Positions 15,506-43,909 of a stretch of 64,000 nt of DNA are shown in pieces. How positions within the stretch are numbered: the stretch's first letter is position 1; every line of letters starts with the position of its first letter. The stretch comes from Escherichia phage SP27. Under the pieces are notes generated by a model, which did not search any database, was not told the DNA's origin, and saw only the letters and a program-made list of their open reading frames with translations. The DNA lies in the sequence record LC494302.1, one strand, 5' to 3'. A program made the position numbers and the translations under genes.

Positions 15506-16486
15506 ATGGCTAAAAAAATTAATGAAGCACAAGTTAAAATCGATATCGCAGGTTTAGAATCTGATGATTTGGAAACTCTATCACGTATGTTAGCTCTTGC
15601 TGGTCAAGCTGAACGTCAAGACCCAGTAGTTGCCGCTCCAGTACCATCTATGGGGTCTATGACTCCATCTCTTCCACCTATTGCTCCACTAGATCTCGAT
15701 TCTATTGGTGCTGAAGAAGAAATTGGTGGAATTGAAACTTCAGTTGAAGACCCACTAGCAGCGGCAGTTGATGATCTTTCCGCTGATGTTGGTGATTTTG
15801 GTGCTGACACAGATGAAGTTAGTATGGATGCTGAATTTTCAGAACCAGGTGTAGAAGGTGAAGAAGATTTTTCTCTTGACCTTAGTGGTCAACCTCAACT
15901 AGAATCAGTTGAAGAAGACGATGAGGAAGAAGAAGAAATTATTGAAGAAGAATTCGATTTTAGTCGTATGCTATCTCTTGCTGGTATTAACGAAGAAGAA
16001 GACGAAGATTTTTCAGTAGAGGGTAATCCTGCTACCGATAAAGAAATGAAAGATACCCAATTTCTACCAGATCTAAGTATCTCTGAAGATGAAGAACCAT
16101 CTAACAGTACTGATTATGGTCCATATGATACAGAAGCTGATGCCGTTCGTGATGGTCAACTAAAGACTAATGGTGTTGAAGGTGACCATTTTGTTGTAAT
16201 TGCAAAAGGCAATCAATTTTATTGGAGACGTGTTGTAGATGAAGATCTTGACAATCGTCCAGAACCTGAGTATTATGATAATGAAGGGAACGAAAATCGT
16301 GTTCATAAATTTGAACCAAAATTCCCAGGCACTGCATTAGGAGATAACCCACTAAATGTTAATGAAAGTGAAGAAGATGATTCACCTGAAGGTAACATTG
16401 ACTTGGAAGATGATTCTGATGAAGAAGTAGAAGATATTTTTGAAAGTCTCCAAGAAAAATACAAGAAATTTTTAGGAGACAAATAA
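15506..16486 (+). CDS. Hyper-acidic protein (D/E-rich; candidate DNA mimic or scaffold/internal protein)
   Basis: Long D/E runs (EEDDEEEEEIIEEEFDF) and a repeated SRMLALAG / SRMLSLAG motif. Confidence 0.55.
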   Translation: MAKKINEAQVKIDIAGLESDDLETLSRMLALAGQAERQDPVVAAPVPSMGSMTPSLPPIAPLDLDSIGAEEEIGGIETSVEDPLAAAVDDLSADVGDFGADTDEVSMDAEFSEPGVEGEEDFSLDLSGQPQLESVEEDDEEEEEIIEEEFDFSRMLSLAGINEEEDEDFSVEGNPATDKEMKDTQFLPDLSISEDEEPSNSTDYGPYDTEADAVRDGQLKTNGVEGDHFVVIAKGNQFYWRRVVDEDLDNRPEPEYYDNEGNENRVHKFEPKFPGTALGDNPLNVNESEEDDSPEGNIDLEDDSDEEVEDIFESLQEKYKKFLGDK

Positions 16487-16487
16487 T

Positions 16488-16883
16488 ATGCAATATAATT
16501 ATCGTGAACTAGTTGAAGCGTTAGACGAAATTACCGGAAGAGATGAAGACGAAAGTTTTTCAGTTGAAGTTGAATCCGATGTTGTAGCAGTTGATGTTCT
16601 TAAGGATATTACCAAATGTCTTATTGATATTGTTGATAAGATTAAATCTGGTGAAGACCAAAAAGAAATTGTAGATAAACTACAAAAAGCCTGTGACATT
16701 TTGTCTGACATTCGATATAATGATGAAAGTACTGAAGTTGCTGATGAAGAAGTGTTGGAAGCCATTGCAGGTTGTTTTGGAACTGAAGGTATGGGACCAA
16801 CAATTGACAAAGAAGGCGTACAACACTATAATGAGCCTGGTGCACCATCATATGCTGCACGTCAAGGTTTTGTTGGAGACTAA
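16488..16883 (+). CDS. Acidic hypothetical protein (131 aa)
   Basis: ORF with RBS GGAGAC; overlaps the upstream stop. Confidence 0.5.
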   Translation: MQYNYRELVEALDEITGRDEDESFSVEVESDVVAVDVLKDITKCLIDIVDKIKSGEDQKEIVDKLQKACDILSDIRYNDESTEVADEEVLEAIAGCFGTEGMGPTIDKEGVQHYNEPGAPSYAARQGFVGD

Positions 16884-16886
16884 TAT

Positions 16887-17267
16887 ATGTTTCCAGAACC
16901 ATCACATAACAGTACTGAATATCAAAATAATGTACTTTCCAAAGTTAGGGAAGTACATGAATCAGATTCAGAAATAACAGACCGTATGCTTCTGATGTCA
17001 ATTTTTGAAAATTTCAGAACTGGCGGTGGTTTACGTCTTAGCAAGTTTGGGTATGGAATTTGTAAAGAAAATAATCTTTATGAATTTACAAAAATCCCCT
17101 TGCAAAGAGAATTTAAAAGTTCTATAATGTTTACATCACTTGACAGAATATGTACTTCACCTTATTATGTTGAAGGTCAGTACATATATCTGACAGATGC
17201 AATGATAATAACTGAATTAACATTGTGTTGTGACGATTTTAAACAGTTATTTTCTATTCATATGTAA
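16887..17267 (+). CDS. Hypothetical protein (126 aa)
   Basis: ORF with RBS GGAGAC. Confidence 0.45.
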   Translation: MFPEPSHNSTEYQNNVLSKVREVHESDSEITDRMLLMSIFENFRTGGGLRLSKFGYGICKENNLYEFTKIPLQREFKSSIMFTSLDRICTSPYYVEGQYIYLTDAMIITELTLCCDDFKQLFSIHM

Positions 17268-17291
17268 GAAAAAATGAATTAAAAATAAATG

Positions 17292-17319
17292 TTGACAAGA
17301 TAGAATGATGTGATACAAT
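17292..17319 (+). promoter_or_regulatory. Sigma70-like promoter (TTGACA-16-TACAAT), diverged first copy of the array
   Basis: TTGACAAGATAGAATGATGTGATACAAT. Confidence 0.5.
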
Positions 17320-17386
17320 AAGCATCAGACATAAAGTTTTCAAGCGACACAAGATGTGAGTTTGAAAAAAAAAAGAAAAAAAGTGA

Positions 17387-17414
17387 TTGACAAGTTGAAA
17401 CGATGTGATATAAT
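17387..17414 (+). promoter_or_regulatory. Strong sigma70-like promoter (repeat copy 1)
   Basis: TTGACA 17387-17392, 16-nt spacer, extended -10 TGATATAAT; upstream A-tract resembles an UP element. Confidence 0.55.
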
Positions 17415-17480
17415 GTTCACATCAAGACAGCAAAGAGATTTACCTTTTAAACACACGGAAAAAAAAAAGAAAAAAAGTGA

Positions 17481-17508
17481 TTGACAAGTTGAAACGATGT
17501 GATATAAT
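17481..17508 (+). promoter_or_regulatory. Strong sigma70-like promoter (repeat copy 2)
   Basis: Identical to copy 1, 94 bp downstream. Confidence 0.55.
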
Positions 17509-17569
17509 GTTCACATCAAGACAGCAAAGAGATTTACCTTTTAAACACACGGATGATTCATGAAGTAAC

Positions 17570-17617
17570 AAAGGAACTGATAAGTTAAATTATTTTAACA
17601 CAGTTCCTTTACTTTTG
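17570..17617 (+). terminator. Hairpin plus U-tract between the promoter array and the proximal promoter (terminator or attenuator-like)
   Basis: AAAGGAACTG-(21-nt loop)-CAGTTCCTTT followed by ACTTTTG. Confidence 0.35.
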
Positions 17618-17636
17618 CCCACGGATTGGCTATAAT
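17608..17636 (+). promoter_or_regulatory. Sigma70-like promoter proximal to the AAA+ gene (TTTACT-17-TATAAT)
   Basis: TTTACTTTTGCCCACGGATTGGCTATAAT about 40 nt upstream of ATG 17678. Confidence 0.45.
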
Positions 17637-17677
17637 AGAAACTTAAACGATTTTATCCAACAAAAGGAAATATATAC

Positions 17678-19003
17678 ATGACTACTCAAAACGATATCCT
17701 GAACGTTAAACTGACTCCAAAGAAAGCTAAAGAAGCAATGGCACTAGCTGACATGATTCAAGATAGCCTGATGATTTGGGGTAGCCCAGGTATCGGTAAG
17801 TCTGCAATCGCTCGTCAATACGCTGATGAAAATTACCCACTGCGTAAAGATAACGTAGCTAAAATCGAGTTCATGAAACAACAAATCGAAGCTGACCCTG
17901 AAAATGCTGATCAGCTACGCCGTGAACTGGCTGCATTTGAAGCAAAACTAATCGACCAAGATACTAACTTTATCGATTTCCGTTTGTCTCAAATCGAACC
18001 AAGTGACCTTCGCGGTATTCCAGTACCAGAGAAGCTTTTCCGTAAAACTGACGGTTCTCTTCTGAAAGAATCTGAGCTTGCCGAAGCAAAAGATTATGTA
18101 GCTGAAACTGCGGTAGTATGGGCTGCACCTAAAGTTCTGAAATTGTCCGAAGATTGGAAAGGTGTTATTCTGTTTGACGAAATTAACTCTGCAATGCCTA
18201 TTGTTCAGGCAGCGTCTTATCAGCTAATCCTCGACCGTTGTGTTGGTGAGATGAAGCTACCTAAGACTGCACTGATTCTTGCAGCAGGTAACCGTGAAAC
18301 TGATGGCGGTGTAACTTTCTCTCTTGCTACACCACTGCGTGACCGTATGACTCACATTGAGATGATTCCTTATCATCAAGATTGGATTAACGATTATGCG
18401 ATTGCAAAACGTTTGAACCCAGCAACTGTTGCGTTCATCAACAACACTGGTTCTAAGTACTTTAACACACTTAGTCCACAAGATCCTTCTCACAGTGGTG
18501 GTACTTCTCCACGTTCATGGGAAGCAGTAGCACGCTACGAAGATCTCAAGAAAACTAAGACAATTGATAAAGAAGTGTTCCGTGCAATGATTGCTGGTCG
18601 TGTTGGTGAAGGTGTTGCAACTGAATACATTGAGTACGTTGAGAACGTTGCTAAACTACCAGATACTATGTCTATTCTGTCTGGTGAAATCAAAGAAATC
18701 GACGCAACGCTGGATATTTCTGCGAACTACTTTATCACTCTGAACTTGGTTTATAAAATTATCGACCTGTTCAATGAGAAGCAAGAACAACGTCTACCAG
18801 TGGAAGAATGGGGTAAACTGTGTAACAACTTCATCACCTTCCTAGACCATAACTTCTCTGCAACTCAAGCAGAACTGGCAGTACTGGCAATTCGTACCAT
18901 CACGCTTCATAAGGTTGCGATTTCCATTAAAGATGTACCAGCGTTTAAAGATTTCATCGCTAAGTACTCTGAACTTGTACGTAAAGCACGCTCTCTTGGC
19001 TAA
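17678..19003 (+). CDS. MoxR-like AAA+ ATPase (CobS-like)
   Basis: Walker A GSPGIGKS, Walker B VILFDEINSA, MoxR-type FRLSQIEPSDLRG segment; CTG/CGT-rich codon usage unlike neighbouring genes. Confidence 0.8.
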   Translation: MTTQNDILNVKLTPKKAKEAMALADMIQDSLMIWGSPGIGKSAIARQYADENYPLRKDNVAKIEFMKQQIEADPENADQLRRELAAFEAKLIDQDTNFIDFRLSQIEPSDLRGIPVPEKLFRKTDGSLLKESELAEAKDYVAETAVVWAAPKVLKLSEDWKGVILFDEINSAMPIVQAASYQLILDRCVGEMKLPKTALILAAGNRETDGGVTFSLATPLRDRMTHIEMIPYHQDWINDYAIAKRLNPATVAFINNTGSKYFNTLSPQDPSHSGGTSPRSWEAVARYEDLKKTKTIDKEVFRAMIAGRVGEGVATEYIEYVENVAKLPDTMSILSGEIKEIDATLDISANYFITLNLVYKIIDLFNEKQEQRLPVEEWGKLCNNFITFLDHNFSATQAELAVLAIRTITLHKVAISIKDVPAFKDFIAKYSELVRKARSLG

Positions 19004-19025
19004 TTAACAAAGAGTTGTTGACAAG

Positions 19026-19056
19026 AAGGATGCCTAATGGTATCCTTCTTTTATCT
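19026..19056 (+). terminator. Rho-independent terminator
   Basis: GAAGGATGCC-TAAT-GGTATCCTTC then TTTTAT. Confidence 0.5.
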
Positions 19057-19077
19057 TAACTAAACGAGGAAATATAC

Positions 19078-20502
19078 ATGTCAGATAACAAATCTACTTC
19101 CAGATTCAATGAAGTATCTCCGGCACTCCAGAAAGAATGTCAAGATCGTCTGGTTCTGGCTCGTACATCTTTGATGTTAACTGCACCATTCTTTGGTGTA
19201 CTCGCTTCACGTTTACGTCCAGTTCCTAATAATACATGGTGTCGTACTCTAGCAGTTGATGGTAAACATCTATTCTACAACGTAGAATTTGTAATGGGTA
19301 TTCAAGACCCATCTAAAAAGAAAGAATATGAAGAAGCTATTCGTGAAAAGCATCCTGAAGTTACAGACGAACAATTAAAAGAAATGACTGAAGGTTTGAC
19401 TGATGAAAACCTTATTGCTGTAATTTGTCATGAAATTCTACACTGTGCTTACGATCACTTCCTTCGTCGTGGTATGCGTGATCCACAACGTTATAACCGT
19501 GCAGCGGATTATGCCATTAACCAAATCATCGTTCGTGAGAAAATTGGAAAAATCCAAAGTTCATGGTTGTATGATAAAAAATATGAAGGTATGACCGCAG
19601 AAGAGATTTACATTCTTCTTGAAGAAGAAGAACAAAAAGAAGATGGTGAAGGTGAAGGTCAACCACAAAGTGGCGGCGGTGAAGGTGAAGGTAAAAATCG
19701 CGGTACTTTTGGTGATATTAAAGATGGTAAGGGTAAACCAAAAGGTACTACCATTGACCAGCATGACGTTCCACAAGAAGGTCAAGAAGGTGGTTCAAGT
19801 GAACAGCAAAAACGTGATTATATGGATGATTTCAAAACAGCAATGATGAATGCTGCACGTGCAGGTGGTACACCAGCAGAAATCGCTCGTATGATTAACA
19901 ACTTTAAAGAACCAAAGATTGACTGGCGTTCAAAACTTCAACGTACACTTCGTAGTTGGTTGAAGTCTGATGCAACGTATCAAAGTCCTTCTCGTCGTTC
20001 ATGGGGTGCTGGTTTTGGTTCTAATGGTTCATTCTATGGTAATCCAATTTACCCAGGGATGAAACCAGATGATGATATTGATATTGCGATTGCACTAGAT
20101 GCTTCTGGGTCTATTTCTGAAGATATGCTTCGTGATTTCATTAGTGAAGTTCTTGGCATCACTAAACAATTCAAACAGTTTAAGATTCGTATCATGACTT
20201 TTGATACTGAAGTTTATACTGTAAAGGATTACAAAACTGGCGAAGAACGTAAGATTCTGGAATATCCAGTAAAAGGTGGTGGTGGTACTGACTTTGAAGC
20301 AGTATGGGTTCATATGAAGAACGACAACTACAAGCCTAAACAGCTTGTAATGTTTACTGATGGTGAACCGTGGCAGTCATGGGGTGATCCAAACTACTGT
20401 AAAACACTGTTCGTGATTCACAGTAACCCAAATAAAGTTGCACCATTTGGTGAGACTGTACACTACGAATATGAAGCTGATAAAAAGCGTCAACGTAGTT
20501 AA
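19078..20502 (+). CDS. vWA-domain protein with an N-terminal HExxH metallopeptidase-like motif (DUF2201/CobT-like partner of the MoxR ATPase)
   Basis: HEILH in ICHEILHCAYDH; vWA MIDAS motif DIAIALDASGSIS; Gly/Glu-rich linker. Confidence 0.75.
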   Translation: MSDNKSTSRFNEVSPALQKECQDRLVLARTSLMLTAPFFGVLASRLRPVPNNTWCRTLAVDGKHLFYNVEFVMGIQDPSKKKEYEEAIREKHPEVTDEQLKEMTEGLTDENLIAVICHEILHCAYDHFLRRGMRDPQRYNRAADYAINQIIVREKIGKIQSSWLYDKKYEGMTAEEIYILLEEEEQKEDGEGEGQPQSGGGEGEGKNRGTFGDIKDGKGKPKGTTIDQHDVPQEGQEGGSSEQQKRDYMDDFKTAMMNAARAGGTPAEIARMINNFKEPKIDWRSKLQRTLRSWLKSDATYQSPSRRSWGAGFGSNGSFYGNPIYPGMKPDDDIDIAIALDASGSISEDMLRDFISEVLGITKQFKQFKIRIMTFDTEVYTVKDYKTGEERKILEYPVKGGGGTDFEAVWVHMKNDNYKPKQLVMFTDGEPWQSWGDPNYCKTLFVIHSNPNKVAPFGETVHYEYEADKKRQRS

Positions 20503-20512
20503 GTACTAAATA

Positions 20513-20545
20513 AAGAGAACGGAATTTTCCGTTCTCTTCTTTTAT
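20513..20545 (+). terminator. Rho-independent terminator
   Basis: AGAGAACGG-AATTTT-CCGTTCTCT then TCTTTTAT. Confidence 0.6.
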
Positions 20546-20547
20546 AA

Positions 20548-20577
20548 GTGGGACAACTTATAAAAATATGATATAAT
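20548..20577 (+). promoter_or_regulatory. Sigma70-like promoter (GTGGGACA-16-TATAAT), second copy of the motif at 1440
   Basis: AAGTGGGACAACTTATAAAAATATGATATAAT. Confidence 0.4.
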
Positions 20578-20611
20578 AGTTAATGTACCAATATACATGG
20601 AGAGTATTAAA

Positions 20612-20857
20612 ATGGAACAAGAAAATAATCAAATTCAACTAACCCTTCTAGACCTAATCAATGCTGCAAAAATCATGGAAGCTGCTGTTGCACGAAACAC
20701 CTTTAAAGTTGAAGAACTTGTTGAGGTTGCTCCAGTTGTATCTAAATTTGTTTCTTTTGCAAATGTAGCTCTTGAAGATATTAAAGCACAAGAAGATGCA
20801 GCTAAAGAAGAAGCTGAATCACAAGATAGTGAAACTCAAGAAGATAAAGGAGAATAA
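20612..20857 (+). CDS. Small acidic early protein (81 aa)
   Basis: ATG 20612 has GGAGAG 8 nt upstream (the track's 20597 ATG lies within the RBS); acidic C-terminus. Confidence 0.5.
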   Translation: MEQENNQIQLTLLDLINAAKIMEAAVARNTFKVEELVEVAPVVSKFVSFANVALEDIKAQEDAAKEEAESQDSETQEDKGE

Positions 20858-20859
20858 TT

Positions 20860-21516
20860 ATGGCAGCTATTCGTCATGTTGGTGTAATGCGTAATACAGG
20901 TTCTCGTGTTTTTGTTGTTTGGCGTTCACTACCAGATGATCCTGAACACTGCCTTATCGTTTATCGTGATTCACTACCAGAAGCATATGTTCACGCAGTA
21001 ACTGATATTGTTATGGGTCATGGTCAATCTAATATTGATTTGTGGGAAGTAATGCATAAAATTGGTTATCTCGATGGACGCAAAATGCTAGATGTTCTAC
21101 ACAACATGCAGCATCTACGTCGCGTTCGTACTTGTGACATTGATATGCACACTGGTGGTAATAATAAAATTTCTCTTGATGTTCTAAACAAAGCATTAGA
21201 TGAAAATCAAGCGAAAGTACAAGAAGATGGTAAAGTAAAAGACTTTAACCCATTCAATCCACAAGAAGCGGACACTAAAGTAGAAGAAGCTACTATTGTA
21301 GAACAACTTCTCACTGATGCACAAAAATATGAAAAACTGGCTAAAGAACATTATGAACGTGCATACAATTTAGAGCCAAGCTTGCGTCCGCAAACACAAG
21401 TTGTTGAACAACCGAAAGATAGTAAAACAATTTATCTAGAAATTCCAGAAGGTATTTCACAGACTAAAGCTATTGAGAAAGTAAAACAACTATTTGCAGA
21501 ACGTAAAGCAAAATAA
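20860..21516 (+). CDS. Hypothetical protein (218 aa)
   Basis: ATG after AAGGAGAA. Confidence 0.55.
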   Translation: MAAIRHVGVMRNTGSRVFVVWRSLPDDPEHCLIVYRDSLPEAYVHAVTDIVMGHGQSNIDLWEVMHKIGYLDGRKMLDVLHNMQHLRRVRTCDIDMHTGGNNKISLDVLNKALDENQAKVQEDGKVKDFNPFNPQEADTKVEEATIVEQLLTDAQKYEKLAKEHYERAYNLEPSLRPQTQVVEQPKDSKTIYLEIPEGISQTKAIEKVKQLFAERKAK

Positions 21517-21519
21517 AAT

Positions 21520-22113
21520 ATGAAAAAGAATGAATTAGATGAAGCAATTAAAGGTTTATCTAATGTATGTTTTAGTGGCGGGGCAGCAGGTGCTGACCGC
21601 CTTTTTTCTATCTATGCAAAAAATAATGGATTTGAAGTTATTAATTTTTCATTCAAAGGTCATGAGCATAGTGTAGATGAAAGTACTATATTAGAAATAC
21701 CATCCAATATTCTATCTGATATTTCTATATTAAATCAACTAAACATTGCATGTTACTCGTTGCAGCGAAAAGTACCAAAACCTGGTTCTTATGTTTACAA
21801 CTTACTTGCAAGGAATAGTTATCAGATACTTAATACAGAAAGAATATATTGTATTGCAAATATCACATCACCAACTAAGGTAAGTGGTGGTACTGCATGG
21901 GCAGTACAGATGTATATGGATTCAGTTGAAAATCCTGAAATTTATTGTTATGATATGAATTCACGTTCAGTATTTTATTTCGATACAGTACTGAAAGAGT
22001 TCACACAAACATTCGTCGTTCCAGCACCACATGGTAACTGGACTGGTATTGGTTCACGCAATGCCACCGAAAAACATATGGAACATTTTATTACATTTTT
22101 CAAGGAAGAATAA
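21520..22113 (+). CDS. Rossmann-like protein with an SLOG/DprA/LOG-type glycine motif
   Basis: FSGGAAGADRL and GGTAWAVQM resemble SLOG-superfamily nucleotide-binding loops; stop overlaps the thyA start. Confidence 0.4.
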   Translation: MKKNELDEAIKGLSNVCFSGGAAGADRLFSIYAKNNGFEVINFSFKGHEHSVDESTILEIPSNILSDISILNQLNIACYSLQRKVPKPGSYVYNLLARNSYQILNTERIYCIANITSPTKVSGGTAWAVQMYMDSVENPEIYCYDMNSRSVFYFDTVLKEFTQTFVVPAPHGNWTGIGSRNATEKHMEHFITFFKEE

Positions 22114-41552: not shown

Positions 41553-41580
41553 TAGACAAACCGTAAGAATGTGATATAAT
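41553..41580 (+). promoter_or_regulatory. Sigma70-like promoter with extended -10 upstream of the ClpA-like gene
   Basis: TAGACA-16-TGTGATATAAT; the ATGTGATATAATG core is shared with the promoters at 5060 and 17400. Confidence 0.5.
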
Positions 41581-41620
41581 GTTTATTAATTAGAGTGACG
41601 TGAATCACATAGGAGAATAC

Positions 41621-43909
41621 ATGAATCTTACTCAATTGTTCAAAAAAAGCGACGAACTGGCAACATCTCTAGGTCATACATTCTTGACTATTGACCACGT
41701 AAGTGCCACAGTACTGACTATTGATAGCATCAAGAACGTATTTGAAGATATGAACATTGATGCAGACAAACTGCACAACCGCCTGATGAACTATCTTAAA
41801 AATACAACAGTTCCACATGCACCAAAAAGTGTTAAAGATGAAGACGCGAATCGAACTTCACTTCTAGTGAATCGCGTTGTACATGAGCTTTCTAAAAAAT
41901 CAGTTATTGAACAACTAAAAAGTGATGATTTTTCGATTGATGCATATTTTGTTCTATTCGAATGTCTGTCTTTCCCTAACACAGCACTAGAAGCTGCGTT
42001 AAAAGAAGAAGGTGTTAGCTGTACTGAAGCTGCACGTGCATTACAGAAACACGTTGAGTCACTTGATAAAGGTATCAACTTACAAAGTATTAATGACGAA
42101 CCGATTGGAGATAAAAAAGTGGCCCAACAGCAGCAATCATCTAAACAAAAAGGTTTGGAAGACTATACAACGAATCTAACTGCTCTTGCAAAAGAAGGCA
42201 AACTAGATCCTATGATTGGTCGCCAGAAAGAATTGTCTGCATTGATTGAGACTCTTGCTCGCAAAACCAAAAAGAATGCTATTCTCACTGGTGAAGCTGG
42301 TGTAGGTAAAACACAAATCATCGACGGGCTTGCACAAGCTATTGCTGATGGTAACGTACCTGAACACCTGAAAGACGTTGAAATTCTTTCACTAAATGTT
42401 GGTGCATTGACTGCTGGTACTAAGTATCGTGGTGAATTTGAAGAACGCATCGACAATTTGCTAAAAGAACTAAAGAAACGTGAAAATACTATTGTTTTCA
42501 TTGATGAAATTCATATTATGGTTGGGGCTGGTTCCGCAAGTAATGGTTCTATGGACATGAGCAATATGCTTAAGCCAGCACTTTCACGTGGTGAGATTCG
42601 TGTAATTGGTGCAACAACATATGATGAATATCGTAAAAATATCGAGAAAGATAGTGCATTAACTCGTCGTTTTATGAAAATTGACGTAGTTGAGCCGACA
42701 ATTGATGAAACTCGTGCAATTGTTAATGGTTTGAAACCAACGTATGAAAAATTCCATAATGTTGAGTTCACATCTGATGCAATGGATGCTGTAATTTCTC
42801 TCAGTGATAAATTCCTGAAGAATAAGCACTTCCCAGATAAAGCAATTGATCTAATGGATGCTGCTGCGGCTAAAGTTCGTTCACGTGACAACAATAGTAA
42901 GCTAATTACTGCCAATTTGATTCAAGAAGTTGTTGCTGGTATTGCCAATTTGGATATCAACGTGGTTGCATGTACTGAAAGTGATCGTATGCGTAATCTA
43001 CCAGATGCACTACGCTCACGTGTATACGGTCAAGAGGAAGCTATTCAAAAATTAGTTGATAACGTGATGGTAGCTCGTGCAGGACTGCGTGACAAATCTA
43101 GTGTTCAGGGTGCATTTATGTTTGTTGGACCATCTGGTACTGGTAAAACAGAAATTACCAAAGCATTAGCAGACGCAACTGGTGCGGAACTCATTCGCTT
43201 TGATATGTCAGAATTTTCTCAAGAACATACTGTTTCTAAACTAATTGGTTCACCTCCAGGTTATGTTGGTCATGATTCTGGTAACGGTTTACTGTTGGAT
43301 AAAATTGAGCAGTTCCCTAATGCAGTACTGTTACTTGATGAAATTGAAAAAGCAGATCGTAAAGTACTACTAACCTTCCTACAGGTTTTGGATGAAGGTC
43401 GTCTGACTGGTTCTCAAGGTAAAACTGTATATTTTAATAACGTAACTGTTATTATGACTACAAACCTTGGTGCGGCTGATTCAACAAAGCGTAGCATTGG
43501 TATGAGCGGTAGTGACACTGCACAGGACAAGGCAATTAAAGCATTCTTGCCACCAGAGTTTATTAACCGTATTGATAGTATCGTTACGTTTAAAGACCTA
43601 AGCAGTGAAGCTATTGACAGCATCATTGATAAGTTCATGGGTGGTTTGAATGAACAAGTCAAAGACCGTAATGTTAAAGTTACATTAACAAAAGCTGCAC
43701 GTGAATGGCTTGCGAAAAATGGGGTAAAAGTTGGTATGGGTGCACGTCCAATGAAACGTACCATTGAACAAAACATTCGTGTGCCACTAGCTAAAGAAAT
43801 GTTGTGTGGTTCACTTGTGAATGGTGGTAACATTACATTTGATGTTATTGATGGTAAAATCGGTATTAAGCCGAAACGTACCAAAGCTGTAGATAAAGCA
43901 CTAGTATAA
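41621..43909 (+). CDS. clpA: ClpA-like AAA+ unfoldase (Clp protease ATP-binding subunit homolog)
   Basis: Two AAA+ modules ([24 protein letters not shown]), [17 protein letters not shown] loop at the ClpA IGL position; ATG 41621 with AGGAGA RBS. Confidence 0.85.

Follow-up and report, generated by a model that had tools for sequence, protein, structure and literature searches.

What is the function of two adjacent genes of a giant phage that stand behind an array of promoters, use host-like codons and encode an ATPase together with a metal-binding partner? We examined this pair in a stretch of 64,000 nucleotides of Escherichia phage SP27 (LC494302.1), referred to here as the window. The gene numbers gp562 to gp566 follow Escherichia phage 121Q (Asteriusvirus), a giant or jumbo phage of E. 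coli. The original prediction described a chaperone-like pair with a codon bias due to very high early expression or recent acquisition. The pair and its codon bias were borne out, whereas recent acquisition and the description of the bias in terms of CGT and GAA were not. Both open reading frames were confirmed to the base (Table 1).

Table 1. Features of the gp563/gp564 locus, with positions in the window.
Feature	Position	Strand	Description or basis
gp562, co-conserved upstream neighbour	16887..17267	+	homologue (E 3e-9) precedes the pair in phage-like MAG loci
Promoter-like P1	17292..17319	+	TTGACA-16-TACAAT with TG extended -10; also in GenBank 121Q and phAPEC6 records
Perfect tandem repeat, 94 bp x 2	17364..17553	+	bears P2 and P3; sequence
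Promoter-like P2	17387..17414	+	perfect TTGACA-16-TATAAT with TG, A-tract ahead; motif search
Promoter-like P3	17481..17508	+	identical to P2, within second 94-bp unit; motif search
Leader hairpin and U-tract, terminator/attenuator-like	17570..17617	+	between promoters and ATPase gene; dG -15.1 kcal/mol, z -5.2
gp563, divergent MoxR-class AAA+ ATPase	17678..19003	+	441 aa, 49.5 kDa; N4 gp24-like, PHROG 1297
Walker A, GSPGIGKS	17780..17803	+	aa 35-42; 38-sequence alignment
Walker B, D167-E168	18176..18181	+	38-sequence alignment
Intergenic hairpin and U-tract, candidate partial terminator	19023..19057	+	between ATPase and partner genes; dG -18.6 kcal/mol, z -7.8
gp564, predicted DUF2201_N zincin metallopeptidase, acidic/Gly-rich linker, VWA (DUF2201)	19078..20502	+	474 aa; N4 gp25-like, PHROG 1314
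HEILH, predicted zinc-binding/catalytic motif	19429..19443	+	aa 118-122; invariant in 30/30 sequences; profile match to selecase MJ1213
MIDAS, DASGS	20098..20112	+	aa 341-345; alignment of 30 sequences
Terminator-like hairpin and T-run	20513..20545	+	closes the two-gene unit; sequence
gp566, co-conserved downstream neighbour	20860..21516	+	homologue (E 9e-21) follows the pair in 7 MAG loci

The full catalytic set of an AAA+ ATPase is present in gp563. In an alignment of 38 sequences the Walker A and B motifs, sensor-1 (N205), the arginine finger (R223 in PLRDRMT), sensor-2 (R279 in SPRSW) and the segment EPSDLRGIP (residues 107-115) are invariant or nearly so, in agreement with the Walker motifs and PSDLRG segment claimed before. 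The PLRDRMT and SPRSW segments resemble the LLDRF and SPRA motifs of MoxR proteins. In Pfam searches, which gave a clear assignment for the partner (see below), gp563 itself barely reached the generic AAA family (21.3, cutoff 21.2) and stayed under the thresholds of AAA_3 (16.7, cutoff 27) and AAA_5 (15.6, cutoff 22), but some clear homologues do pass. Sixteen of the 38 family members matched AAA_5, 14 AAA_3 and 4 bpMoxR, and the homologue in a Brucella locus scored 28.4 with AAA_5, above the threshold of 22.

The AF2 model of gp563 (pLDDT 86) was most similar to NorQ and CbbQ. The top 11 Foldseek matches were NorQ (E 5e-7 to 5e-6) and CbbQ2 followed at rank 17, with other AAA+ clades close behind. 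Because of these top folds a packaging or replication ATPase was ruled out. According to the secondary-structure string of the model, a long hairpin resembling a helix-2 insert (strands 115-123 and 140-148) follows EPSDLRGIP, and a pre-sensor-1 hairpin with short strands around residues 187-193 precedes the sensor-1 strand (199-205). The protein further contains two lineage-specific insertions (residues ~54-95 and ~117-147) and a C-terminal helical domain (residues ~298-440). Single-sequence PDB searches with gp563 and gp564 returned nothing useful, and with the ATPase alignment as a profile the matches, to many AAA+ proteins, were confined to the P-loop region. We conclude that gp563 is a divergent MoxR-class AAA+ ATPase of the helix-2-insert/pre-sensor-1 hairpin lineage.

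The partner gp564 gave two Pfam matches above the gathering thresholds, DUF2201_N (2.7e-34, 119.5 bits, cutoff 23.2) followed by the VWA-like DUF2201 (7e-21, 75.1 bits, cutoff 26.4). The HEILH motif and the DxSGS signature of a vWA MIDAS, both anticipated in the original prediction, were found to be invariant across 30 sequences: this holds for H118, E119 and H122 as well as for D341, S343, S345, T404 and D428, which make the MIDAS complete. The third zinc ligand may be H127 or D144. The N-terminal domain gave a profile match to selecase MJ1213, an active minigluzincin (E 1.7e-4); the alignment with minigluzincins and M48 peptidases covers a β-strand and the HExxH helix, only about 50 residues. 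The predicted model of gp564 has a pLDDT of 71.5, with low confidence outside the domains. By its sequence, gp564 joins a predicted zincin protease to a VWA domain whose MIDAS is complete.

Two database labels of the partner are misleading. The RefSeq name 'HNH endonuclease' is wrong, as no HNH family was found in Pfam or NCBIfam and its only source is the name of PHROG 1314; the NCBIfam search returned no matches for either gp563 or gp564. In phages MIJ3 and Pylas, HNH homing endonucleases are inserted beside or within the pair, and these insertions are a possible source of the mislabel. The label 'T4 gp25-like' is also an annotation error, in which N4 gp25 was probably mistaken for T4 gp25; gp264c of phAPEC6 is annotated 'N4 gp25-like'.

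The two genes are the 121Q counterpart of the gp24 (AAA ATPase)/gp25 (vWFA) module of phage N4, which belongs to the N4-like core genes (PMC4193335, PMC2784036). The N4-like proteins are shorter, without the two ATPase insertions and without an insert of ~34 residues in the protease domain of the 121Q proteins. Furthermore, the N4 pair belongs to a podovirus and sits among the middle genes of its replication region, whereas the 121Q pair lies between structural clusters. A MoxR/vWA-metallopeptidase pair in jumbo phages was already described by Iyer, Anantharaman, Krishnan, Burroughs and Aravind (Viruses 2021, PMC7824862; example accessions ASV44729.1/ASV44728.2). Their 'group 2.2' of T4-related jumbo phages, a MoxR ATPase with a vWA cochaperone carrying an N-terminal metallopeptidase, has the identical architecture and is the same entity. 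What we add to that account is not the discovery of the pair but its context, i.e. promoters, leader and internal hairpins and codon adaptation, together with virion mass spectrometry and the N4 gp24/25 and rV5-like homologues.

Both genes co-occur in Rak2-like jumbo phages and in PA5oct-, rV5- and N4-like phages, the latter recovered with tblastn and HMM searches, and many uncultured phages also carry them. The ATPase gene lies upstream of its partner on the same strand in 30/30 bacterial or MAG loci with enough upstream sequence. This strict pairing, the NorQ/CbbQ folds and the AAA_5, AAA_3 and bpMoxR matches support the chaperone-like pair that had been proposed. The closest homologues are all phage proteins. 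Homologues of gp562 also precede the pair in GAP32, BF17, SE_PL and an Erwinia phage, and in MAG loci a tail-fibre-like Mtd_N gene occurs downstream together with a gp566-like gene. The block lies within the morphogenesis region in five genera, in Rak2-like phages between structural clusters, and gp563 and gp564 are its most conserved genes.

The pair forms what appears to be a self-contained transcription unit: putative σ70 promoters would be followed by the leader hairpin, the ATPase gene, the second hairpin, the partner gene and a terminator. The previously noted promoter array is real and consists of three predicted σ70 sites, all near-consensus with an extended -10 element. Perfect TTGACA-16-TATAAT sites occur 4 times in the window against 0.31 expected, and none of the related database records contains the P3 copy. 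The leader hairpin has equivalents in BF17, SE_PL, Erwinia phage pEa_SNUABM_19 and GAP32 despite changed sequence, and the intergenic hairpin is likewise kept in all four. An Rfam scan of the promoter and leader region gave sub-threshold chance matches only. The late motif of Rak2-like phages (ATAAATA-type, no more than ~65 nt ahead of the start codon) does not occur in 17268-17677 or 19004-19077, although it is found upstream of 10 structural ORFs in the window. In the same structural region a gene for a ClpA-like chaperone carries the same promoter and codon signature as the pair.

Ranked by E. coli CAI, gp563 is first and gp564 second of the 44 ORFs in the window. The CAI of gp563 was 0.464 (z 10.4), which exceeds the value for the major capsid protein, and that of gp564 was 0.412 (z 6.2), so that the comparison with the host gave significant values for both. 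The weights follow the E. coli set of Sharp and Li (1987); small errors in them would hardly affect the ranks and z-scores, and the absolute values are approximate. The GC3 of gp563 was 0.343 against 0.194 expected (z 8.8), that of gp564 deviated by a z of only 2.45. The bias had been attributed to CTG, CGT and GAA. This was correct for CTG, which makes up 41% of the leucine codons in gp563 and 15% in gp564 against 3% in the background, with the partner weaker than the ATPase; neither CGT nor GAA, with background values of 0.59 and 0.87, sets the pair apart. The distinctive codons are CTG and the 'major' codons of the NNC/NNT type.

The possibility that this codon signature reflects recent acquisition from the host or from a GC-richer genome agrees with the composition of gp563, which tops the 44 ORFs in both GC (0.423) and GC3. 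However, its GC1 and GC2 are ordinary and the shift is codon-specific: CTG, AAC, ATC, TTC, TAC, TCT, ACT and GGT are increased, whereas CCG is used 0/19 times and CAG 3/15 times. The CCG/CAG/GCG enrichment that imported E. coli DNA should show is thus missing. Orthologues with conserved synteny occur in five genera, both genes are core to the lineage, and their divergence follows that of the neighbours (ATPase, 93/74/59/57%; ThyA, 93/72/70%). The bias is limited to the E. coli-infecting genus, where it is present in both 121Q and BF17, and the pair has the highest synonymous conservation of the block. The pair is vertically inherited and, with the bias confined to one genus, recent acquisition is unsupported. 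In view of the synteny, the divergence, the codon-specific shift and the phage-only closest homologues we consider it refuted.

High expression, by contrast, is plausible, because of the translational-selection codon pattern, a CAI exceeding that of the major capsid protein and the detection of the ATPase, next to thymidylate synthase, in virion preparations of phAPEC6. The claim that expression is also early draws on promoter type only; the conserved terminator-like leader hairpin stands between these promoters and the ATPase gene, and the N4 homologues are middle genes (PMC4193335). The main texts of the PA5oct (RNA-seq), CBB, RaK2 and Sharanji papers make no mention of the pair. Taken together, the host-type promoters, the two conserved hairpins, the codon adaptation and the ClpA-like gene sharing the signature speak for abundant synthesis ahead of the late genes, with the ATPase made in excess over the cofactor.

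[quoted passage not shown] In docking of the NorQD/CbbQO type a finger of the VWA domain enters the pore of the ATPase, and the C-terminus of the cofactor lies on the post-sensor-1 loop. In such a mechanism gp563 would form a ring on which gp564 docks through its C-terminal VWA domain. The MIDAS would grip an acidic residue of the target protein and the zincin, positioned on its flexible acidic linker, would cut it, while ATP hydrolysis may twist or pull gp564 so that the substrate is remodelled or exposed. Several gp563 subunits would be made per gp564 cofactor, which fits the internal hairpin and the stronger codon optimization of the ATPase gene. NorQ-NorD and CbbQ-CbbO (PMC13036017, PMC4660213) likewise combine a MoxR-class ATPase with a VWA cofactor, but NorD and CbbO lack a peptidase domain and each system serves one defined enzyme (cNOR and Rubisco, respectively); the 121Q ATPase is ~180 residues longer than NorQ and CbbQ. 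Another viral pair is p618 (MoxR) and p892 (VWA) of ATV (Scheele et al. 2011, as described in PMC4124505). ATV is an archaeal virus whose pair has no peptidase domain and showed no detectable sequence relationship to the 121Q pair; a myovirus has nothing that corresponds to its role in extracellular tail growth. We found no experiment on any member of the family in the literature. That the pair is a machine made of a MoxR ring and a VWA-protease cofactor we nevertheless regard as highly probable.

Its likeliest substrates would be phage proteins that depend on being chaperoned and processed in the course of morphogenesis, and Iyer et al. (PMC7824862) also proposed a role in virion assembly. 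Assembly proteins as target are favoured by the position of the block in the morphogenesis region of five genera, the gp566-like and Mtd_N genes downstream in MAG loci, and the ClpA-like chaperone gene with the same signature in the structural region. Virion mass spectrometry of phAPEC6 (PMC7247149) points in the same direction: the ATPase was detected with 6 peptides (19% coverage) and the partner was not listed, which matches ATV, for which PMC4124505 describes p618 as virion-associated and p892 as undetected. The same data contain one peptide of gp262c, the counterpart of gp566. They also list thymidylate synthase, so the ATPase may be an abundant carry-over. The host-type promoters and the missing ATAAATA motif, unlike the 10 structural genes of the window, count against an assembly target, as do the N4 homologues being middle genes among replication and nucleotide-metabolism genes and the DNA ligase and β-clamp rather than structural genes near the alphaproteobacterial pair. 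We propose assembly proteins as the target only tentatively.

The last two observations lend some weight to a remodeller that strips or processes DNA-bound proteins or replisome parts during replication of the phage genome; clamp or ligase partners and protein-DNA adducts would be examples of targets. In the N4-like phage Pylas dUTPase and helicase flank the pair, the block of 121Q and its relatives also includes thymidylate synthase and a SLOG/DprA-like gene, and alphaproteobacterial loci encode a DnaN-like β-clamp and an ATP-dependent DNA ligase close by. However, these neighbourhood links are loose, being drawn from few loci with a span of ±5 kb, the Rak2-like block lies between structural clusters, Pfam detected no DNA-binding domain in either protein, and the zincin resembles selecase and M48 peptidases rather than SprT/Wss1. 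We consider a function in replication or repair unlikely, and the same grade applies to a host-takeover or counter-defence machine, made pre-late from host-type promoters, whose VWA/MIDAS captures host proteins for unfolding and cleavage. Candidate captured proteins would be defence complexes and nucleoid or quality-control proteins. The σ70 promoters without late motif, a codon usage tuned, only in the genus infecting E. coli, to the pool of major tRNAs of this host, the shared signature of the ClpA-like gene and the early/middle position in Pylas beside Clp/FtsH-like genes are all in line with takeover, and zincin proteases such as ArdC have been discussed as anti-host effectors (PMC7824862). 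Counter-defence genes are usually accessory and variable, whereas this pair is conserved core (2 of the 14 N4-like core genes and the most conserved of its local block); moreover, PADLOC models of anti-phage defence and counter-defence matched neither gp563 nor gp564 and there is no known host target. Slightly less probable still is a bolder version, a novel type of zincin protease, fuelled by ATP and targeted by its MIDAS, that captures and cuts specific host proteins pre-late instead of acting as an assembly chaperone, with the leader hairpin as a regulated attenuator timing its synthesis. Large virulent phages with host-type promoters would be its users, and defence, nucleoid or proteostasis factors its targets.

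A chaperone that inserts a metal cofactor into a phage enzyme, comparable to NorQD (Fe), CobST (Co), BchID (Mg) and CoxDE, is improbable. The peptidase-like domain would then bind metal or remove a pro-peptide. NorQ-NorD are indeed the nearest solved structures (PMC13036017) and the pair repeatedly lies near nucleotide-metabolism enzymes, but across loci it has no strict link to any conserved candidate metalloenzyme, and the catalytic Glu of HExxH is invariant, which indicates hydrolysis rather than mere metal binding. The best explanation as a whole remains an N4-type module that acts as a remodelling protease machine in morphogenesis, to which we assign a probability of about 0.5; the module being common to podoviruses and myoviruses with very different virions and the scores of the 121Q ATPase below the AAA_3 and AAA_5 thresholds count against it.

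The N4 gp24/gp25-type pair, core in N4-like phages and present in rV5-, PA5oct- and Rak2-like phages and many uncultured phages, is among the most widely conserved phage modules without a known function. Knowing which substrate it acts on would close a real gap in phage biology, and the features of its context provide concrete experimental handles.

The region 17000-21000 is 100% identical to Escherichia phage 121Q (NC_025447/KM507819; Asteriusvirus; 348.5 kb) and to phAPEC6, and some 19 related E. coli and Salmonella jumbo phages match it at 99% identity or more (megablast). Both ORFs have exactly the boundaries originally predicted. In the 121Q annotation gp563 is an 'ATPase', and gp564 is an 'HNH endonuclease' in RefSeq and a 'Zn-dependent hydrolase (T4-gp25-like)' in GenBank; the phAPEC6 labels are 'MoxR ATPase' and 'N4 gp25-like protein'. 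The names 'HNH endonuclease' and 'T4-gp25-like' are mis-annotations of gp564, and PHROG 1314 bears the same wrong name. The former may stem from HNH homing endonucleases in or beside the pair in phages MIJ3 and Pylas, the latter from N4 gp25 having been mistaken for T4 gp25.

Pfam searches matched gp564 to DUF2201_N ('putative metallopeptidase', 2.7e-34) and DUF2201 ('VWA-like', 7e-21). In an alignment of 30 sequences with identities down to ca. 43%, the zincin motif (H118, E119, H122) and the MIDAS residues D341, S343, S345, T404 (GGGGTDF) and D428 (FTDG) were invariant, which bears out the predicted HExxH and vWA partner. Taken alone, gp563 barely passed the generic AAA model (21.3 bits, cutoff 21.2) and stayed below threshold for AAA_3 and AAA_5; PHROG 1297 matched it at 3e-107. 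The 38-sequence alignment of the ATPase family showed the full AAA+ catalytic set and the predicted PSDLRG segment, as EPSDLRGIP, with two insertions (aa ~54-95 and ~117-147) confined to the jumbo-phage branch. Since the shorter relatives (~360 aa) pass MoxR-type Pfam models (AAA_5 16/38, AAA_3 14/38, bpMoxR 4/38) and NorQ (11 of the top 13 matches) and CbbQ2 come nearest to the AF2 model of gp563 (pLDDT 86, pTM 0.79), the MoxR assignment holds at the family level. The profile searches did not point to a packaging or replication ATPase.

Homologues of both proteins occur throughout the Rak2-like jumbo phages. A tblastn search with the partner gave 447 phage records, including PA5oct/MIJ3-like, rV5-like and N4-like phages, the last being podoviruses, and ~145-kb Klebsiella, Proteus and Cronobacter myoviruses. 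In N4-like phages gp24 (AAA) and gp25 (vWFA) are two of 14 core genes (PMC4193335). Among 33 loci from GTDB genomes and MAGs, the ATPase lay upstream on the same strand in all 30 with enough upstream sequence, as expected of the chaperone-like pair proposed. Co-occurrence was retained where adjacency was looser: in rV5-like WalterGehring the genes are divergent and 3.6 kb apart, in MIJ3 a homing endonuclease separates them, and in Pylas an HNH intron splits the ATPase. Among the recurrent neighbours, two are homologous to 121Q proteins, gp562 (E 3e-9) and gp566 (E 9e-21), and another is a tail-fibre-like Mtd_N protein. Alphaproteobacterial loci instead have a DUF3150-like gene, an ATP-dependent DNA ligase and a DnaN-like clamp. 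There (L019-L025 and L033; L021, for example, is from Brucella pecoris) the genes of a recurring locus, cellular or on a mobile element, run in the order DUF3150-like gene, small ORF, MoxR-like ATPase, one or two small paralogous ORFs, DUF2201 protease-VWA, ligase and beta-clamp, with no structural phage genes within 5 kb on either side.

The predicted promoter array is real: the 410-nt spacer upstream of the ATPase holds three near-consensus extended -10 sites, all with a TG element and upstream A-tracts. Perfect consensus sites number four in the window, against 0.31 expected. The 64-kb window has 11 near-consensus sigma70-like sites, seven of them in one 1.3-kb stretch. The 94-bp unit carrying two of the sites is doubled in the window (95 extra bases in all); GenBank 121Q, phAPEC6 and 22/22 related records have one copy, with no contiguous duplication junction in any. 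The extra copy may reflect a difference between isolates or assemblies, or a strong promoter may truly have been duplicated in tandem. Leader and intergenic hairpins lie at matching positions, with differing sequence, in the related phages BF17, SE_PL, Erwinia pEa_SNUABM_19 and GAP32, which retain at least an extended -10 element upstream. The leader region and four equivalent spacers (L036, L038, L039, L040) share, past the promoter(s), a transcript start region (t[ct]aagaca...), then hairpin and U-tract, GGATT and RBS; the whole may encode a short RNA or serve as attenuator or antitermination site, and it matched no Rfam family.

Coordinates of the ATPase-partner unit and of other features in the window
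Feature	Position	Strand	Details
gp560	15506-16486	+	326-aa 'virion structural protein'; directly upstream of the syntenic block
Further sigma70-like sites	16248-17168	+	four, near-consensus (0-1 mismatch), within ORFs gp560-gp562
Promoter-like site	17292		TTGACA-16-TACAAT
Promoter-like sites	17387, 17481		TTGACA-16-TATAAT
Perfect 94-bp tandem duplication	17364-17553		carries sites 17387 and 17481
Conserved leader region	17421-17617
Leader hairpin and U-tract	17570-17617		between promoters and RBS; dG -15.1 kcal/mol, z -5.2
ATPase, gp563	17678-19003		441 aa
Intergenic hairpin and U-tract	19023-19057		between ATPase and partner; dG -18.6, z -7.8
Partner, gp564	19078-20502		474 aa; YP_009102151.1
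Terminator-like hairpin	20513-20538		downstream of partner
gp567	21520-22113	+	annotated 'DprA-like DNA recombination-mediator'
gp581	41621-43909	+	762 aa; wider region 41553-43909
ATAAATA (example sites)	6050, 9124, 12835, 13360, 25081, 35873, 35902, 53961, 57524, 58483

Codon usage was compared across 44 non-overlapping window ORFs of at least 100 aa. The ATPase ranked first in GC (0.423), in GC3 (0.343, where its amino-acid sequence and the background synonymous usage predict 0.194; z 8.8) and in E. coli CAI (0.464, z 10.4; absolute CAI values are approximate, ranks and z-scores robust). The partner ranked second in CAI (0.412, z 6.2) with a mild GC3 excess (z 2.45). GC1 and GC2 were ordinary, and the shift is therefore synonymous. 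In the ATPase it is codon-specific, with CTG (Leu) at 41% vs 3% in the background, AAC (Asn) 85% vs 35%, ATC (Ile) 46% vs 15%, TTC (Phe) 65% vs 29%, TAC (Tyr) 62% vs 22%, TCT (Ser) 67% vs 25%, ACT (Thr) 72% vs 51% and GGT (Gly) 89% vs 69%. The gene has no ATA, AGA, TTA or GGA, CCG in 0/19 and CAG in 3/15 cases; highly expressed E. coli genes show this 'major codon' pattern, and average E. coli DNA does not. The host-like bias originally proposed is significant against the window ORFs, except that CGT and GAA are normal phage choices (background 0.59 and 0.87). Set against a further 22 annotated 121Q genes, the ATPase still had a higher CAI than the major capsid protein (0.425), gp600 (0.433) and the scaffold (0.365), and CTG was absent from the highest-CAI structural genes examined (MCP, gp600, gp618, scaffold, sheath and tube). 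BF17 (86% DNA identity) has the same bias (ATPase CAI 0.461, CTG 0.47; partner 0.451 and 0.27); it was not found in Salmonella SE_PL, the Erwinia phage or Cronobacter GAP32 (CTG 0-0.03, CAI 0.27-0.34).

Recent acquisition, offered originally as one reason for these codons, is refuted by synteny and by the divergence of the genes. Five genera keep the order structural genes, gp562-like gene, ATPase, partner, small ORF, gp566-like gene, SLOG/DprA-like gene and thymidylate synthase. Amino-acid identities of 121Q to BF17, SE_PL, Erwinia phage and GAP32 are 93/74/59/57% for the ATPase and 91/71/59/55% for the partner, comparable to ThyA (93/72/70%) and at or near the top of the block in every comparison. 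The genes descend vertically. Where 121Q and BF17 have the same residue, the codon was also the same most often in the ATPase (79% vs 58-75% in other genes), a pattern that selection on synonymous sites would produce. Within the block gp567, kept in all four phages, has a weak sub-threshold Pfam match to SLOG-family YAcAr (E 5e-4). The upstream gp560 is extremely acidic (D/E-rich) and of low complexity, and corresponds to gp267c in phAPEC6 MS (one peptide).

The window has 13 copies of the CBB/GAP32-type late motif ATAAATA where shuffled sequences have 48.6 ± 7, a depletion of about four-fold. Eleven copies are found 13-65 nt ahead of the starts of ten structural genes, which would agree with a T4-like late promoter served by gp591, the gp55-like sigma factor of the phage. 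None lies upstream of the ATPase-partner unit. By promoter type the unit is predicted not to be late, because sigma70-like promoters and no ATAAATA precede it; its N4 homologues are middle genes (PMC4193335). As for the very high early expression proposed, high expression is plausible, and 'early' is only inferred, since the leader hairpin sits between the promoters and the ATPase.

Domain content, catalytic and MIDAS residues, strict pairing and regulatory layout are direct observations. We consider it likely (probability about 0.85) that the pair forms a MoxR ring with a VWA-protease cofactor. By analogy with NorQ-NorD as studied by cryo-EM (PMC13036017) and other MoxR-VWA pairs, a single cofactor would dock by its VWA domain on a hexameric ATPase ring, the target would be held at two points, by the MIDAS site and by the N-terminal domain, and ATP hydrolysis would twist or stretch the linker. 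What sets this module apart among MoxR-VWA pairs is its N-terminal zincin domain, whose catalytic Glu is invariant; remodelling is therefore probably coupled to cleavage. The ATPase would be in excess over the cofactor, which fits the conserved intergenic hairpin, the stronger codon optimisation of the ATPase and its detection by MS without the partner.

That detection comes from ESI-MS/MS of phAPEC6 virions, which listed gp265c 'ATPase' (49.52 kDa, 6 peptides, 19% coverage) and not the 54-kDa partner (PMC7247149); the computed mass of the ATPase, 49.51 kDa, matches, phAPEC6 being identical at this locus. Thymidylate synthase was listed as well (PMC7247149), and the ATPase signal may therefore be carry-over of abundant soluble proteins. 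Iyer et al., who had described this MoxR/vWA-metallopeptidase pair in jumbo phages, proposed a role in virion assembly with proteolytic processing, likened to ATV p618/p892 (PMC7824862); we found no experimental work on DUF2201 proteins or N4 gp24/25. An assembly target is a tentative assignment, for which we counted where the block lies, the MS detection, the similarity to the ATV case and gp581, a ClpA-like AAA+ 'ATP-dependent protease' gene among the late structural genes. Besides those of the pair, the window has a single intergenic near-consensus sigma70 site (TAGACA-16-TATAAT), which lies upstream of gp581 and is a promoter of the same type as that of the pair (...AATGTGATATAAT), and gp581 shares the codon marks of the pair (CTG 0.15, GC3 z 4.95, CAI z 5.6). 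A role in replication or host takeover would instead agree with the N4-like and alphaproteobacterial contexts and with the non-late promoter class.

The pair itself was known before, from the literature and from GenBank annotation. Its substrate is a worthwhile question, one that the window alone does not make newly tractable; the present work contributes the expression architecture and the genus-specific codon adaptation of the pair.
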